Positions 11,035-17,284 of a stretch of 64,000 bases of DNA are shown one piece after another (within the stretch, counting starts at the first letter, position 1; the number at the start of each line of letters is the position of its first letter). The DNA comes from a candidate division FCPU426 bacterium (GTDB taxonomy: Bacteria; Oederibacteriota; Muellerivitia; Muellerivitales; Muellerivitaceae): the NCBI GenBank assembly GCA_963719085.1, contig CAVRAL010000004.1, forward strand, positions 960,001-1,024,000, given 5' to 3'. The position numbers were made by a program, and so were the translations under genes. The notes beneath the pieces are model-generated. The model was not told where the DNA came from, searched no databases, and worked only from the letters and a program-made list of their open reading frames with translations.

Positions 11035-12000
11035 ATGAACAACCTGCGTTGGTTCCTCATCCTCGTCGGCCTGGCGGCCATGACCCAAGGTTTTGTTTTG
11101 GTGCTGCCGGCCTATTTCAGGGATCTTTTCACGATCGCCTCCATCAACGCGATTCTCGCGGTTTCCCTCAACTTGGTGAACGGGTTGTCGGGGCAATTTT
11201 CTTTGGGCCAAGCTGGTTTCATGGCCGTGGGCGCCTATACCTCGGCCTCAGTTGATTTATTCTGGATCTCGTCTTGGCATGGAAGCGCTTTTGGAAATCA
11301 GGCGGCCTTTGTGGTTTCACTCCTGGCGGCGGCCTTGGCCGGCGGGTTGGTGGGTTACTTGGTGGGGCTTCCCACCCTTCGGCTCAAGGGTGATTACTTG
11401 GCCATCGCGACGTTGGGCGTGGGCGAGATTATCCGGGTGGTCATCCTCAACATCAACGCGGTGGGCGGCGCCCGCGGGCTTTTCGGCATCCCCTCGGCGA
11501 CCAGCGCCTTTATGACGACCCTCATCCTTTTAACCTGCGTGCTGGCCACCCACCGGTTTGTCCATTCCACGCATGGCCGGGCGCTTTTGGCGGTGCGGGA
11601 AAATGAGATCGCGGCCGAGGCCATGGGCGTGGATACGACGGCCTATAAAGTGAAAGCTTTCGTGGCGTCTTCCGCCGTGGCGGCGGTCGCGGGCGGGTTG
11701 TTCGCCCATTACCTTTGCTATATCAATCCCGGTTCCTTTGATTTCATGAAGTCGGTTGAGATCGTCATTATGGTGGTTTTGGGCGGGATGGGTTCGGTGT
11801 CGGGATCGGTGTTGGCGGCGTTTGTTTTAACCCTCCTGCCGGAAGCCCTGCGGCCCCTGCAGGCGGTGACCCATGTGGACCTTCGCATGGTGATTTACGC
11901 GCTTCTTCTTATTCTCATGATGATCCTTCGGCCCCAGGGGATTTTTGGCCGCAAGGAAATTTGGCAAATGATTATGCTCAAACGAAGGAAACGGGAATGA
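11035..12000 (+). CDS. livM: Branched-chain amino acid ABC permease
   Basis: GQFSLGQAGF, LRLKGDYLAIATLG, AVRENEIAAEAMG; ATGA overlap with livG. Confidence 0.92.
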   Translation: MNNLRWFLILVGLAAMTQGFVLVLPAYFRDLFTIASINAILAVSLNLVNGLSGQFSLGQAGFMAVGAYTSASVDLFWISSWHGSAFGNQAAFVVSLLAAALAGGLVGYLVGLPTLRLKGDYLAIATLGVGEIIRVVILNINAVGGARGLFGIPSATSAFMTTLILLTCVLATHRFVHSTHGRALLAVRENEIAAEAMGVDTTAYKVKAFVASSAVAAVAGGLFAHYLCYINPGSFDFMKSVEIVIMVVLGGMGSVSGSVLAAFVLTLLPEALRPLQAVTHVDLRMVIYALLLILMMILRPQGIFGRKEIWQMIMLKRRKRE

Positions 12001-12779
12001 GCGCGGCCCCGGTGCTGGACATTCAAAAGGTGACCCTGGCCTTTGGCGGCCTGGTCGCGGTCGACCGCCTTTCGATGGGCTTGAACGAGGGGGAACTGGT
12101 CGGGCTCATCGGGCCTAACGGCGCGGGTAAAACCACGGTTTTCAATATTTTGTCCGGCATCTACCGGCCCCAATCCGGCGACGTCCGGGTTTTTGGCAAG
12201 CCCATCTTGGGACTCAAGCCCCACCAGATCACCCACTTGGGGCTGGTCCGGACCTTCCAAAATATCCGGCTGTTCAAGGAACTGTCGGTCGAGACCAATA
12301 TCCAGGTGGCCTTTCATCACGGGCAGCCTTATAGCGTGGCGGCGGCTTTGCTCCAAACCCGAAGGTACCGTTATTTTGAGAAGGCTTTTGGGGAAGAGAC
12401 GGAGCGGCTGATGGAAACGCTGGAACTGACCCACCGCCGGGGCGCCCTCGCGGGGGCCCTGCCCTATGGGGATCAGAAAAAGCTGGAGATCGCCCGGGCC
12501 CTGGCCACCGGCGCGCGAATCTTGCTTTTGGACGAGCCCGCCGCGGGCATGAATCCCCAGGAATCCCAATGGCTGGTCCAGGCCATCCAGCGCATCCGCA
12601 AAGAATTCAACCTGACCATTCTGGTGATCGAGCACGACATGAAATTCGTGATGGGCCTTTGCGAAAGGATCGTGGCCGTGGACCACGGCGTGAAGATCGC
12701 CGAAGGTTCCCCGGCCCACATCCAAAAAGACACAAAAGTCATCGAAGCGTATTTAGGAAAAAAGAAAAGCAAAGGCTGA
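11997..12779 (+). CDS. livG: Branched-chain amino acid ABC ATPase
   Basis: FGGLVAV, GPNGAGKT, RTFQNIRLF, LPYG, LLDEPAAG, EHDM. Confidence 0.94.
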   Translation: MSAAPVLDIQKVTLAFGGLVAVDRLSMGLNEGELVGLIGPNGAGKTTVFNILSGIYRPQSGDVRVFGKPILGLKPHQITHLGLVRTFQNIRLFKELSVETNIQVAFHHGQPYSVAAALLQTRRYRYFEKAFGEETERLMETLELTHRRGALAGALPYGDQKKLEIARALATGARILLLDEPAAGMNPQESQWLVQAIQRIRKEFNLTILVIEHDMKFVMGLCERIVAVDHGVKIAEGSPAHIQKDTKVIEAYLGKKKSKG

Positions 12780-13265
12780 TTTTCACCACCAAGGCACCAA
12801 GACACCAAGAAAGGCGTTATAAATGGAAAGGGAACCGCTTGATCCATCCTTGGACCCGATTGCACAGCAGATCGTTGACTCGGCTTTCAAGGTTCATTCC
12901 GTCTTGGGACCCGGGTTATTGGAACAAATTTACGAAACATGCATAGCCAAGGAATTGGTCAAGAGGGGGTTGCGGGTAGATCGCCAACTTGAAGTTCCAG
13001 TTTCATATGATGGGGAAAAGTTAGACACGGGGTTTCGGTTGGACTTGCTGGTGGATGAAAAAGTTATTATTGAAGTGAAAGCCGTGGAAAGCCTGGCGTC
13101 TGTCCATCACGCGCAAATTTTGACTTATCTAAAATTATCGGGACGACGATTGGGTTTATTGATTAACTTTAACGTTCCCGTTATTCGACAGGGAATCAAA
13201 CGAGTTGTTCTTTGAGGGGGTCGCTTTGAATTTCTTGGTGCCTTGGTGCCTTGGTGGTGAAAATC
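12778..13265. mobile_element. GxxExxY cassette bounded by 35-bp inverted repeats, inserted between livG and livF
   Basis: Left IR 12778-12812 GATTTTCACCACCAAGGCACCAAGACACCAAGAAA matches the reverse complement of right IR 13231-13265 at 34/35; excision restores GGC-TGA-GGTG. Confidence 0.75.
12823..13215 (+). CDS. GxxExxY protein (PD-(D/E)XK nuclease superfamily)
   Basis: VHSVLGPGLLEQIYE, RLDLLVDEKVIIEVKA, AQILTYLK, GLLINFN; more AT-rich than the flanks. Confidence 0.92.
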   Translation: MEREPLDPSLDPIAQQIVDSAFKVHSVLGPGLLEQIYETCIAKELVKRGLRVDRQLEVPVSYDGEKLDTGFRLDLLVDEKVIIEVKAVESLASVHHAQILTYLKLSGRRLGLLINFNVPVIRQGIKRVVL

Positions 13266-13278
13266 GAGGTGATCTTTG

Positions 13279-13995
13279 ATGGGTCATTTGTTGGAAATCA
13301 AGGATTTGTCTGTTTTTTATGACGGGGTTCAGGCCTTGAAGGGCGTCAGCCTGAGCGTGCCGCAAGACGGGATTGTATGTTTGATTGGCGGTAACGGCGC
13401 GGGGAAATCGACCGTGCTGCGGACCGTTTCGGGGCTTAAGCGGCCGACCAGCGGAGAAATTTTATTTAAGGGAGAATCGATCAGCGAGGCTGCTCCACAC
13501 AAGTTAGTGGAAAAGGGGTTGGTTCAATGCCCCGAAGGCCGGGGTATTTTCCCGAAGCTGACGGTTGAGGAAAATCTCGATTTGGGCGCTTACGTGCGCA
13601 AGGACCCGGCGGAAATCAAAAAAGACCTGGAAGAGGTTTACGCGCTTTTTGAGAGGCTCAAGGAGCGCCGCAAGCAATCGGCGGGAACCTTGTCGGGCGG
13701 GGAACAACAAATGTTGGCCATTGGCCGGGCGCTCATGGCGCGGCCCCAATTGCTTTTATTGGATGAGCCTTCTTTAGGCTTGGCGCCCCAAATGATCGAG
13801 ACCATTTTTGAGACCATTGTCGACATCAACCGCCGGGGCACCACGATCCTTTTGGTGGAACAAAACGCCCAGATGGCCCTGGAAATTTCCAACAAGGCTT
13901 ATGTGATGGAAACGGGAACGATTCTTTTGCAAGGCAAGGCGTCCGAAGTCGCGCAAAACCCCAAGGTTCAGCAAGCTTATCTCGGTGAATCTTAA
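13279..13995 (+). CDS. livF: Branched-chain amino acid ABC ATPase
   Basis: GGNGAGKS, PEGRGIF, LSGGEQQMLAIGRAL, LDEPSLGLAP, VEQNA; RBS GAGGTG at 13266. Confidence 0.94.
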   Translation: MGHLLEIKDLSVFYDGVQALKGVSLSVPQDGIVCLIGGNGAGKSTVLRTVSGLKRPTSGEILFKGESISEAAPHKLVEKGLVQCPEGRGIFPKLTVEENLDLGAYVRKDPAEIKKDLEEVYALFERLKERRKQSAGTLSGGEQQMLAIGRALMARPQLLLLDEPSLGLAPQMIETIFETIVDINRRGTTILLVEQNAQMALEISNKAYVMETGTILLQGKASEVAQNPKVQQAYLGES

Positions 13996-14057: not shown

Positions 14058-15509
14058 ATGACCCGCTCACTATTTGTCCGGGAGAAGGTTTTGAAAAGCG
14101 TTTTTGAAAGCAAGCTGTTTAAATTTCTGTCCTCGGTCAAATTGGCCCTGCCCATGATCCTTATCCTGGCGGCGCTTTTGGCCGCCGGCACGATCGTGGA
14201 ATCGCTTTATTCCACTCCCGTGGCCAAGCGGTTCGTTTACGGTACCTGGTGGTTCGGAGGTTTTCTTTTTCTTTTAGGGCTCAATGTTTTTTGTTCCGCC
14301 CTGTCCCGGCTTCCTTGGAAAAAGCATCACACGGGTTTTGTCATCACCCACTTGGGCATCCTTTGCGTTTTGGCCGGGTCGCTCATCACCCGCCAATCGG
14401 GCACGGACGGTCAAATCGCTTTGGCCGAAGGCGCGCAAGGCTCCATTTTTCAGGAAGATAAGCCGATCCTTTCTTGCCGCATTGATTCGAATCCGGCTCG
14501 AGCGATCCCAGCGGGGTTTATGTTTTTGGAACCGAGGCCCTCGATTCCCTTTACTTACGCCATCCCGCCGGACGGCGTTTTAAAAATCGACCGGGTTTAT
14601 TTGAACGCCCAAAGGGTTGTGGGCGCCCGGGCGGCCGGACCGCAAGACTCAATTGGAGTTGAGGCGGTTCATTTGAAGCTTCAAAGCTCTTTTGTCCAAC
14701 AAGACAACTGGTTGTTTTTGGGCAAGGATGGCTATGACCGGGTAGATTTGGGACCGGCTTCGGTCTATTTCTCGACGCCTGGAAGCTGGAAAAGCCTGTT
14801 TCGTAAAGAAGGAGCTCATTTTCCTTCGAACGCCCTCGTTTTGCTGAAGGCTCCCTCAGGGGGTTTTGAGTTTCAAGTCCGGCGCCGGGATGTTTGGGGT
14901 CCGGTCCAATCGCTCCAGGTTGGAGTTTTAGAATCGACCGGCTGGATGGACATGCAATTCCAAATTACCGAAGCCATGTCTAACGCGATGCCCGATATCA
15001 CCTATGCCCCCAGCCCCTTGGCTTATCAAAAAGACCCCCAGCCCGCGCTTCACTTTGAGGCCCAAGACGGTCCGCGCCGGGCCGAAGGCTGGCTTGGGTT
15101 TGAGGATCAAATCAATTTTTCTTTGAACGGACGGACTTGGGCCCTCACTTACGGGCCCCGGCAGGCGTCCCTGCCCTTTACGCTTTTCTTGCGCAAGTTC
15201 AACTTAGGGCTGGATCCTGGTACGGAAAACCCCGCTTCCTATGCCAGCGATATCGCCACCTCGACGGGCGGTTCCGCTCCAGGTACGCCTTATACCATCA
15301 GCATGAACCATCCTTTGCATAAGGCAGGCTATACCCTCTATCAGGCTAGTTATTTCCCCTTGGGGGATGGAAAATACACCTCAGTTTTTTCCGTAGGACG
15401 GGATCCGGGGCTGCCTTTGAAATATGGCGGGGCCTTGATCATGGTTTTGGGCATTATTTTCATGTTTTGGTTTAAAAATCCGGCCTGGAAAAAGAAGGAC
15501 GTGAAATGA
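14058..15509 (+). CDS. ccsB: Cytochrome c biogenesis protein ResB/CcsB (system II)
   Basis: FLSSVKLA, GTIVES, WWF, THLG, ISMNHPL, YQASY, DPG plus C-terminal TM; alternative TTG start near 14091. Confidence 0.85.
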   Translation: MTRSLFVREKVLKSVFESKLFKFLSSVKLALPMILILAALLAAGTIVESLYSTPVAKRFVYGTWWFGGFLFLLGLNVFCSALSRLPWKKHHTGFVITHLGILCVLAGSLITRQSGTDGQIALAEGAQGSIFQEDKPILSCRIDSNPARAIPAGFMFLEPRPSIPFTYAIPPDGVLKIDRVYLNAQRVVGARAAGPQDSIGVEAVHLKLQSSFVQQDNWLFLGKDGYDRVDLGPASVYFSTPGSWKSLFRKEGAHFPSNALVLLKAPSGGFEFQVRRRDVWGPVQSLQVGVLESTGWMDMQFQITEAMSNAMPDITYAPSPLAYQKDPQPALHFEAQDGPRRAEGWLGFEDQINFSLNGRTWALTYGPRQASLPFTLFLRKFNLGLDPGTENPASYASDIATSTGGSAPGTPYTISMNHPLHKAGYTLYQASYFPLGDGKYTSVFSVGRDPGLPLKYGGALIMVLGIIFMFWFKNPAWKKKDVK

Positions 15510-17284
15510 TCAGGCTTCTAGAAGCGGTAAACCAACAAAAACTTCGCACGCGAAGACGCAAAGACGCCAAGGAAACCTTTTCTTTCATAAAGTCAAAAAT
15601 ATTTGACGATTTTTTTCTATTAAGGCCCTTCTTGGCGTCTTGGCGTCTTTGCGTGGGTAGTTTGTTTTGGTTAGTCGTAATTTTGGTTCCGGCTTTTGGC
15701 GCGGAAACGTTCGACTTTTCAACCCTCCAGCTTTTGCCCATCCAGAACGGCGGCCGGGTCAAGCCTCTGGATAGTTTCGCGCGTGAAAGCGCCCGGCAGG
15801 TGACGGGCCATGAAAACTATCAAGGCCTCTCTTCCATGGATTTACTGATGAATTGGATCGCCAAGCCGGATGACTGGAGCGGCCAAAATTTTATCCTGGT
15901 GGAAAACCTTGAGCTCAAAAAAAAGTTGGGGGTGCCGGCCGCCCAAACCGCGGTGTCCCCTGAATTTTTATTGAAGAACAGCGGCTTCCTGGATTTCGTT
16001 AAAGCCGTTCTTCAAAAACAACAGGACAAGGTCGCGTTGAACCCGTTGGAAAAGGAAACCCTGGCCCTCTTTGGCCGTCTGCAAAAGTTTGGGGACATCG
16101 AGTCCGGCGACGCTTTGGCCTTCATCCCCGTGCCCGACTCCCCCAACTGGCTTTCCATGGGCGAACTGCGCCGGGCTTATGACAAGGCCCCGAAAAAGAT
16201 GCCTCCAGTCGCCCAGCTTTTACTTTTTCGTTTCGCCGAGGTGCTGAAGGCTTACGCCGAAAATAACCCCGCTGATTTTACGGCCCAGAGCCTGCAGCTC
16301 GAGGCCATGCTCAAACCGGCGCAAGAAAATCCGCAGGTGAGGCCCGGCCGGTTGGCGTTGGAAGTGACCTATAACCAGTTGAAGCCTTTTCGTTGGGCTT
16401 GGATTTTACATTTGACGGCGGCCCTATTGATCGCGCTCTCAATTCTTTTGAGCCGGGTTTGGCTCTTCCGGATCGGACTTGTCTTTTTTGGAGGCGGAAT
16501 TTTGGTCAGCGCTTTTGGCTTCGCGGCCCGGTGTTTGATCGCGGGCCGCCCGCCGGTTTCCAATATGTACGAATCGCTCATCTGGGTGACTTTCGGAATG
16601 ACGCTTTTCGCGGCTTTGTTCGAGATTCTATTTAAAAACCGCTCTTTTGTTTTGGCCGGCTCCATTCTGGCGGTGGCGGGGTTTGTTTTGGCGGACAACG
16701 TGCCGTCGGTTTTGGACCCTTCCATTCAACCGCTGGAGCCCGTGCTTCGAAGCAATTTCTGGTTGACGATCCATGTGCTCACCATCACGCTCAGCTACGC
16801 GGCGTTTCTTTTGTCCCTCGGCATCGGTCATGTGGGCCTTTGGACGCTTTTTCGACATCCCAAGGATAGACAAAAACTCAAAGACCAAGCCCAGCTGCTT
16901 TACCGGGTGGTGCAGGTGGGGATCGTGCTTTTGGCTTCCGGCACTATTTTGGGAGGGGTTTGGGCCAGCTATTCCTGGGGCAGGTTTTGGGGATGGGACC
17001 CGAAAGAAACCTGGGCCTTGATCGCGCTATTGGGCTACGTGGCGCTGTTACACGGCAAGATGGCCGGTTGGCTTCAAGAGCGGGGATTCATTATGGGTGT
17101 GGTCTGCGCCTTTCTCGGGGTGCTCATGGCCTGGTACGGCGTTAATTTCGTTTTAGGCGTGGGACTGCACAGCTATGGTTTTTCCAAAGGCGGATTGCCT
17201 TATGTGATCTCATTTGTGGCCGCGGAGTTTATCTTAGTGGCGTTGGCGGGGGTTTTATCTTCTCCTCGAAAGGAAGCGCGATGA
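15506..17284 (+). CDS. ccsA: Cytochrome c biogenesis protein CcsA/ResC with N-terminal periplasmic extension
   Basis: GRVKPLDSFAR, PVSNMYES, LRSNFWLTIHV, WWD domain GGVWASYSWGRFWGWDPKETW, GLHSY. Confidence 0.92.
   Translation: MIRLLEAVNQQKLRTRRRKDAKETFSFIKSKIFDDFFLLRPFLASWRLCVGSLFWLVVILVPAFGAETFDFSTLQLLPIQNGGRVKPLDSFARESARQVTGHENYQGLSSMDLLMNWIAKPDDWSGQNFILVENLELKKKLGVPAAQTAVSPEFLLKNSGFLDFVKAVLQKQQDKVALNPLEKETLALFGRLQKFGDIESGDALAFIPVPDSPNWLSMGELRRAYDKAPKKMPPVAQLLLFRFAEVLKAYAENNPADFTAQSLQLEAMLKPAQENPQVRPGRLALEVTYNQLKPFRWAWILHLTAALLIALSILLSRVWLFRIGLVFFGGGILVSAFGFAARCLIAGRPPVSNMYESLIWVTFGMTLFAALFEILFKNRSFVLAGSILAVAGFVLADNVPSVLDPSIQPLEPVLRSNFWLTIHVLTITLSYAAFLLSLGIGHVGLWTLFRHPKDRQKLKDQAQLLYRVVQVGIVLLASGTILGGVWASYSWGRFWGWDPKETWALIALLGYVALLHGKMAGWLQERGFIMGVVCAFLGVLMAWYGVNFVLGVGLHSYGFSKGGLPYVISFVAAEFILVALAGVLSSPRKEAR
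15530..15672. mobile_element. MITE/REP-like palindromic element within the 5' end of ccsA
   Basis: 44-bp arms 15530-15573 and 15629-15672 are reverse complements at 37/44; each carries three octamer units (GACGCCAA-like); AT-rich core. Confidence 0.65.

Follow-up and report, generated by a model that had tools for sequence, protein, structure and literature searches.

This study concerns a 488-bp segment between the genes livG and livF in a stretch of 64,000 nucleotides (the window; contig CAVRAL010000004.1, positions 960,001 to 1,024,000) from a candidate division FCPU426 bacterium. The segment carries a single gene of the GxxExxY family between two inverted repeat arms. Gene-less hairpins of the same repeat family occupy about 70 gaps between genes of this genome, mostly at a distance of about 24 nt from the preceding stop codon, and the segment represents the form that bears a gene. 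Our comparisons demonstrate that the segment was inserted, that the repeat family has gene-bearing and gene-less forms, that gaps behind stop codons were colonized repeatedly and that the cargo is coupled to the arms. We put at roughly 45% the probability that the segment is a selfish hairpin cassette, similar to REPtrons or to the intervening sequences (IVS) of rRNA genes, and that it spreads through the action of its nuclease on cognate arms. For this reading we infer both the cleavage of the arms by GxxExxY and the route of movement.

A repeat search returned two arms of 35 nt each, which are complementary at 34 of 35 positions (97%) and lie 418 nt apart. The original prediction, made from the letters alone, had described the same octamer-built repeats. 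The features of the junction are listed below.

11961 to 12779, plus strand: livG-like ABC ATPase gene with ABC_tran and BCA_ABC_TP_C domains and a match to the LivG model; its last three codons (SKG) and stop abut and overlap the left arm
12778 to 12812, no strand: left arm, with TTTTCACC at its terminus and then three CACCAAG[G/A] octamers; the right arm is built alike
12823 to 13215, plus strand: GxxExxY / PD-(D/E)XK gene of 130 aa (PF13366, TIGR04256), in the same orientation as the operon
13231 to 13265, no strand: right arm, pairing with the left arm
12778 to 13265, plus strand: complete inserted cassette of 488 bp, by comparison with the ATGA-overlap state of relatives
13266 to 13278, plus strand: new livF ribosome-binding region directly 3' of the right arm, read from the sequence as GAGGTGA, 6 nt and the ATG at 13279
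13276 to 13995, plus strand: livF-like ABC ATPase gene, from open reading frame (ORF), domain and LivF model; likely start ATG at 13279

The GxxExxY gene is the sole ORF enclosed by the arms. Its product matched PF13366 (PDDEXK_3; E 9.1e-43, 145.8 bits against a cut-off of 22) and TIGR04256 (GxxExxY; E 1.7e-43, 147.7 bits against a cut-off of 35). As the curated cut-offs of both models were exceeded, the cargo is, by family assignment, a GxxExxY/PDDEXK_3 protein. For the neighbouring genes, the LivG model gave E 5.6e-84 and the LivF model E 6.5e-74; as both matches fall short of the equivalog cut-offs, we refer to these genes as liv-type ABC ATPases. The cargo ORF has a G+C content of 45.3% compared with 58.1% for livG, 53.2% for livF and 56.1% for the window, in agreement with the earlier remark that the cargo is more AT-rich.

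We compared the livG|livF junction across 19 genomes of the same family. In ten of them (G001 from the same genus, G002, G010, G013, G014, G016, G018, G020, G021 and G024) the livG stop overlaps or abuts the livF start, or livF begins within livG, with nothing between the two genes. Three relatives (G005, G009 and G011) have short spacers of about 20–36 nt, and the remaining six have other inserts of about 68–452 nt. Since the junction is empty in 10 of 19 relatives, the 488-bp cassette is, on this comparison, an insertion, and the empty sites implied by the original prediction do exist. Relative to the overlap state, this genome has about 490–500 extra nt, of which the cassette accounts for 488 and remodelling of the junction for no more than about 15. 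The livG product ends in KKKSKG here and in KKKK in the relatives, which also have no counterpart of the spacer with the livF ribosome-binding site GAGGTGA.

In-silico deletion of 12778–13265 gave the junction ...AAAGGCTGAGGTGATCTTTGATG. The arithmetic of the original prediction was therefore right, but the product is not the ancestral state, because the empty sites of the relatives are ATGA overlaps. A precise insertion accompanied by a GA duplication had also been proposed; this part did not stand, as the duplication comprises only 2 nt, overlaps the repeat itself and is thus indistinguishable from chance. The relatives are too diverged (≤79% identity) for the insertion boundaries to be fixed.

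The same junction was found to hold other elements in other genomes. In G019, a 114-aa gene of the 23S rRNA IVS protein family (PF05635; E 1.4e-26) lies inside octamer arms of the TTTTAAGT type, and G006 has a gene-less hairpin with arms of this type. G015 carries a 136-aa ORF without a Pfam match, and in G004 (L042) the junction is occupied by an insert of 216 nt whose inverted repeat is of another kind, the CATTGCGAGGA...TCCTCGCAACG type. These comparisons show that the livG|livF junction was colonized repeatedly by different elements. A similar pattern emerged from six gene junctions of the dcw cluster and the gap after its last gene, compared in up to six genomes: the junctions are mostly filled, but the arm families differ between genomes, and some junctions are empty in one member of a genus and filled in the other. 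The dcw (mur/fts) cluster of this genome (L227, G000 C1:212500-227500) holds seven hairpins within 15 kb; at the same junctions, five relatives (L228–L232) have other arm families or none.

Runs composed of three octamer cores occur 84 times in the genome, as opposed to once in the reversed genome. When two-unit arms were included, 70 paired octamer elements were obtained, 65 of which are short, with loops of ≤160 nt. Three carry GxxExxY: the liv cassette, an element at 283735–284325 of contig C4 and one at 693682–694148, which has an in-frame TGA. Another holds a 154-aa ORF between full 45-nt arms (L055, G000 C4:1219844-1220557); this ORF has no match in Pfam, PADLOC or PHROGs and may represent a third kind of cargo. 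The last element, of 277 nt, lacks a convincing ORF. The genome has a fourth GxxExxY gene, on contig C5, which is flanked by decamer arms (CGCRGATGAA); arms of this kind gave 43 matches in the genome and none in the control. All four GxxExxY genes of this genome are thus bracketed by arms. Where two paired arms are separated by up to 3 kb, the only genes between them are GxxExxY, the single 154-aa ORF, or housekeeping genes between two separate hairpins.

The placement of the 70 elements was determined with crude gene calls (longest non-overlapping ORFs). Fifty-five elements lie between co-oriented genes, 10 between convergent and two between divergent genes (divergent gaps make up 347 of 2595 genome-wide), and three fall inside ORF calls. 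The median distance from the upstream stop codon to the element is 24 nt, and many elements have A-rich and T-rich outer flanks. Such positions, the avoidance of divergent promoter gaps and the flanks are what an ordinary regulatory hairpin of the host, a terminator or attenuator around a resident and immobile gene, would also display. A terminator scan, however, returned one site where 1.7 were expected, other families sit at the same junction elsewhere, and GxxExxY genes from many phyla have units of this type in their flanks (see below). The empty sites in 10 of 19 relatives largely refute this explanation, which we consider scarcely credible.

To follow the association beyond this family, we used 80 GxxExxY loci from many phyla, 75 of which had full flanks. 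Controls were 138 windows of the same loci shifted by 900 nt and 75 shuffles; shuffling across loci is unsuitable as a control for inverted repeats, since the loci share the motif. A flanking inverted repeat scoring at least 12 was present in 57 of 75 loci, in 1 of 138 shifted windows and in 1 of 75 shuffles. At least two CRCNRAG units on both sides were found in 48 of 75 loci compared with 1 of 138 shifted windows. The enrichment of inverted repeats at GxxExxY flanks that had been anticipated is thus borne out both in this genome and across phyla. GxxExxY has the same orientation as its upstream neighbour at 56 of 73 loci and as its downstream neighbour at 47 of 71. Unit polarity is reversed in 8 of the 48 loci with units on both sides, and some loci have a hairpin-gene-hairpin layout. 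Among records labelled Acidobacteriota and Gemmatimonadales, some (L103, L110, L134, L125 and L122) show reversed units in the order CTTTGCG...GTGAG-gene-CTCAC...GCAAAG, or a gene between two complete hairpins. One locus, L157 (G020 C15), has a GxxExxY gene with an inverted-repeat score of 106 nt, far above the others.

The coupling of arms to cargo was followed in the related genomes, with 29 GxxExxY and 28 four-helix-bundle cassettes; 2 of 30 four-helix-bundle loci were excluded because their flanks were too short. GxxExxY cassettes have arms of the CACNAAG, CACAGAG, CGCGAAG or decamer types. Four-helix-bundle cassettes in the same genomes have AGTTAGG, ACAGTCG, TTTTAAGT or AAAAGT arms. In a tree of 33 GxxExxY proteins (29 from relatives and four from this genome), one branch sets apart the nine proteins with decamer (GATR) arms (support 87/80, rough values from a bootstrap that had not fully settled), and 0 of 500 label shuffles were as tight. 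Arms of the NAAG type required three changes on the tree compared with a shuffled mean of 9.4, and the labels 'RGAG' and 'other' were not clustered. Octamer and decamer clades both occur within single genomes. Across 25 genomes of the family, with kinship ignored and each arm family represented by one pattern, genomes with more four-helix-bundle genes tended to have a larger excess of AGTTAGG arms (rho 0.53, p 0.006). The cross-correlations were -0.04 and 0.13. Taken together, these results show, at the level of sequence, that arm type is coupled to cargo family and to GxxExxY clade, and the co-variation of arm and protein expected in the original prediction is seen in the branch that separates the decamer arms.

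One explanation of these patterns is that a host factor or some other factor moves or maintains the hairpins. GxxExxY and the four-helix-bundle protein would then ride along as cargo and serve a different function, for instance in defence, addiction or the processing of nucleic acids. Unrelated cargos in one architecture would fit this (PF05635 in G019, the 154-aa ORF here and the 136-aa ORF in G015), as would the hairpins of the congener G001, in which no GxxExxY gene was detected; the sole match of GxxExxY among defence models was a weak one to Cas4b (PADLOC, E 0.0067). An external mobilizer shared by all cassettes does not predict cargo-specific arm families in the same genomes or arms that follow protein clades. 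Nor was a candidate enzyme found. PF01797 (RAYT/IS200) gave no match in this 99%-complete genome, with control genomes positive, PF01609 gave none, and the single match of PF00665 is distant, 24 kb from the nearest arm. No transposase of these three families, to which the search was confined, is bracketed by octamer arms, in line with the original statement that the cassette has no recognizable transposase. On balance we regard passenger status of the cargo as unlikely.

The arms could also be targets rather than parts of the mobile unit. In such a homing process the hairpins would exist independently of the gene; the nuclease would cut cognate gene-less hairpins and repair would copy the gene in from a gene-bearing hairpin by arm homology, the hairpins themselves not being moved. 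The gene does lie in the loop between arms of the same type as many gene-less hairpins, arm type co-varies with protein clade, and the homing endonuclease I-Bth0305I is among the weak fold matches of the GxxExxY model. Gene-less loops unrelated to cassette interiors are likewise as expected if the gene was never there. However, the gene is present in only 3 of 70 octamer hairpins, and the repeated arrival of hairpins at the same junctions is left unexplained, as are the eight loci with reversed unit polarity and the loci of the hairpin-gene-hairpin type. We therefore consider homing distinctly unlikely.

The protein itself has the features of a nuclease. Its motif is G31-L-L-E34-Q-I-Y37; in an alignment of 77 sequences G31, E34, Y37, D74 and K86 do not vary, and at least 90% of the sequences retain E84. 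Judged by these positions, the nuclease of the cassette is intact, with the catalytic D, E and K conserved. An AlphaFold2 model (mean predicted local distance difference test score 95.9) has helices and strands in the order expected of a restriction-endonuclease-like alpha/beta core. The nearest folds in Foldseek were Cas4 SSO0001 (the best, E 9.1e-4, TM about 0.5), lambda exonuclease and Hjc, all of them distant, and no solved structure related by sequence was found (best match E 0.95). PHROGs gave a weak match to phrog_5928 (E 0.0041); the 154-aa, 136-aa and 114-aa cargos had no match in PADLOC or PHROGs. We also inspected longer homologues from 5 of 25 clusters. Four apparent fusions (P0002, P0004, P0009 and P0015), which join GxxExxY to RNase H, CobU or a sigma-70 factor, were rejected as informative domain fusions: they arise by read-through, and the translated arm appears in them as HQDTKTP-like linkers. 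A fifth protein, P0001, has 266 aa and two tandem GxxExxY domains, the second of which lacks the catalytic residues. This arrangement hints that the family may work as a dimer.

For the selfish hairpin cassette we propose the following course. The GxxExxY gene, without a promoter-like site of its own, is wedged behind the livG stop and would be read through from the liv operon. Its product would recognize the arrays of units in arms of its own type, most probably when these are folded into a hairpin or cruciform or are single-stranded, and would cut at the recognized arms. Host repair or ligation would then complete excision, insertion or copying. In this way cassettes would spread together with cognate gene-less hairpins, the former as the autonomous and the latter as the non-autonomous partner, like RAYTs and REPINs. 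It is possible, and we suggest it more tentatively, that GxxExxY cassettes, four-helix-bundle cassettes and gene-less hairpins form one large class of mobile DNA across phyla, in which each lineage has a small protein, other than a transposase, that recognizes an array of 7–10-nt units of its own and spreads hairpins into gaps behind stop codons; the PD-(D/E)XK nuclease would act together with host repair, and the origin of rRNA IVS would be explained as well.

Several observations weigh against a cassette spread by its own nuclease. A hydrolytic nuclease alone cannot rejoin DNA. The excess of octamer arms did not correlate significantly with GxxExxY copy number in the same 25 genomes (rho 0.23, p 0.27). 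In G001, octamer arms gave 92 matches (control: 6), but the assembly of this genome, which is 82% complete, yielded no GxxExxY gene. No PF05635 match above cut-off was found in this genome, yet some hairpins of the four-helix type are present. Cargo that is not a nuclease occurs in the same architecture (PF05635 in G019), as do the two ORFs of 154 and 136 aa without a family match. At one orthologous dcw junction of G000 and G001, arms and flanks are kept and the loop is wholly different, which could mean that the arms are under selection, serving the host, or that the site was hit twice.

The outcomes of searches for traces of movement belong on the same side of the balance. Contigs of four sequencing runs in Logan contained neither livG joined to livF without the element nor a circle; the occupied junctions were covered at 100% identity in runs X1 and X2. 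Seven apparent joints across 12809–13235 had other letters or flanks and are thus other short hairpins. Footprints of a solo terminus numbered 8 compared with 6 in the control, so that no excess was seen. Regarding target-site duplication, only the ambiguous 2-nt GA was present here, and the ends of 34 elements had no consistent direct repeat. The loops of the 65 gene-less hairpins gave four similarity matches to cassette interiors (control: 5) and were mostly unrelated to each other (13 of 2080 pairs similar). Loops that resemble neither cassette interiors nor one another are a poor fit to the simple copy-and-decay of a miniature inverted-repeat transposable element (MITE).

Two further candidates were rejected. 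Gene-less hairpins do not appear to be internal deletions of cassettes, the similarity of loops to cassettes being at the level of the control (4 vs 5). The search for a strain-level empty site in metagenomes, with a 20-nt livG word, yielded 29 loci, all of which were at most 64% identical upstream and are unrelated liv genes.

The cassette might also act at the RNA level, as in 23S rRNA IVS: RNase III would cut the arm stem, the RNA of the cassette would be released from the transcript of the operon, and the protein would have no part in DNA movement. In the predicted RNA fold of the cassette the arms form a terminal 35-bp stem (z -4.14), and 0 of 100 shuffles folded as well. The cassette is co-oriented with the host genes, and no sigma-70-like promoter site was found in 12500–13500 (0.5 expected). 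A Coxiella IVS with a 28-bp stem of terminal inverted repeats, tandem heptamers before the ORF and excision by RNase III has been described (PMC4990558), and a PF05635 cassette occupies the same junction in G019. On the other hand, stem mismatches showed no bias towards G·U on the transcribed strand compared with the opposite kind (36 vs 30, p 0.54; 1392 paired columns in 55 elements), which lends no support to a purely RNA-level role. RNA processing would also leave the arrival of the DNA and the cargo-specific arm type unexplained. We consider a role confined to RNA quite improbable.

Within the window we made two further observations. A direct repeat of 22 nt (18 of 22 identical) surrounds the right arm, with one copy at 13198–13219 in the last GxxExxY codons and the other at 13262–13283 in the junction before livF. 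Direct repeats that bracket an arm are not general (2 of 46 cassettes vs 1 of 138 controls), and those around single arms had means of 5.0 and 5.5 compared with 4.85 in the control. Downstream of livF, a gene-less hairpin of CGCAAAG octamers lies at 15545–15657 between a ResB-like gene (14058–15509) and a CcsA-like gene. An ORF called from 15506 onwards extends across this hairpin, and the true start of the CcsA-like gene is therefore probably located downstream.

GxxExxY is a very large protein family without an assigned function, and it is now tied to a specific, countable DNA partner. We found no account of its function or of the cassette in the open full-text literature, the search not extending to subscription journals; a further search led only to the IVS literature. 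Hairpin elements in which every small gene family has arms of its own form a widespread and apparently undescribed class. If the link is causal, GxxExxY would add a new enzyme class to the few proteins that move bacterial repeats. The dense intergenic hairpins of many phyla would then be explained and linked to the 30-year-old puzzle of how rRNA IVS originated. There is also a consequence for annotation: the cassettes give rise to read-through 'fusion' proteins and spurious ORFs, and some long GxxExxY proteins in databases are such products.

Among known systems, MITEs and repeats of the ERIC and Correia type are short, gene-less, palindromic intergenic elements that occur in many copies near gene ends, as do the hairpins described here. 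The cassette family differs from them in that it has no definable target duplication, its loops are not conserved and it has a cognate small gene that does not encode a transposase; no parent insertion sequence with a DDE transposase was found with PF01609 and PF00665. With Cas4, Hjc and lambda exonuclease the modelled GxxExxY protein appears to share the core fold and the catalytic D...E-x-K arrangement. This resemblance is weak, and GxxExxY has neither the Fe-S cysteine cluster nor an extra domain.

The original prediction drew an analogy with RAYT/REPIN, which is apt when the many gene-less hairpins with the same arms, the insertion and the link between gene and repeat are taken together. 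In REPINs with their RAYT transposase, or REPtrons (Bertels and Rainey 2011, PMC3116915), a short repeat stands in inverted copies on either side of one small gene, many gene-less, hairpin-forming doublets of that repeat lie in extragenic space, and distinct repeat groups go with distinct gene copies, all without a classical transposase; the cassette family resembles it in each of these points. The cassette differs in that its gene encodes, by family, a PD-(D/E)XK hydrolase where RAYT is an HUH/Y1 transposase, and in that its arms are tandem arrays of 7–10-nt units and not one REP palindrome. The gene-less loops of the cassette family are, moreover, mostly unrelated, and excision intermediates were not seen in contigs.

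With the ORF-bearing 23S rRNA IVS of Coxiella, Leptospira and others (PMC4990558), the cassette shares a length of about 430–490 nt, a stem of about 28–35 bp that is formed by terminal inverted repeats and holds a single small ORF in its loop, tandem short repeats in the arm region and an insertion that leaves the transcribed unit undestroyed. These IVS carry a four-helix-bundle ORF, and a cassette of the IVS protein family is found at the livG|livF junction of G019. The liv cassette lies in an mRNA operon and not in a helix of the 23S rRNA gene, its cargo is GxxExxY and not the four-helix-bundle S23p (PF05635), and its arm units are different. Because the defining enzyme of the one system and the defining location of the other are not those of the liv cassette, it belongs to neither REPIN/RAYT nor the 23S rRNA IVS.

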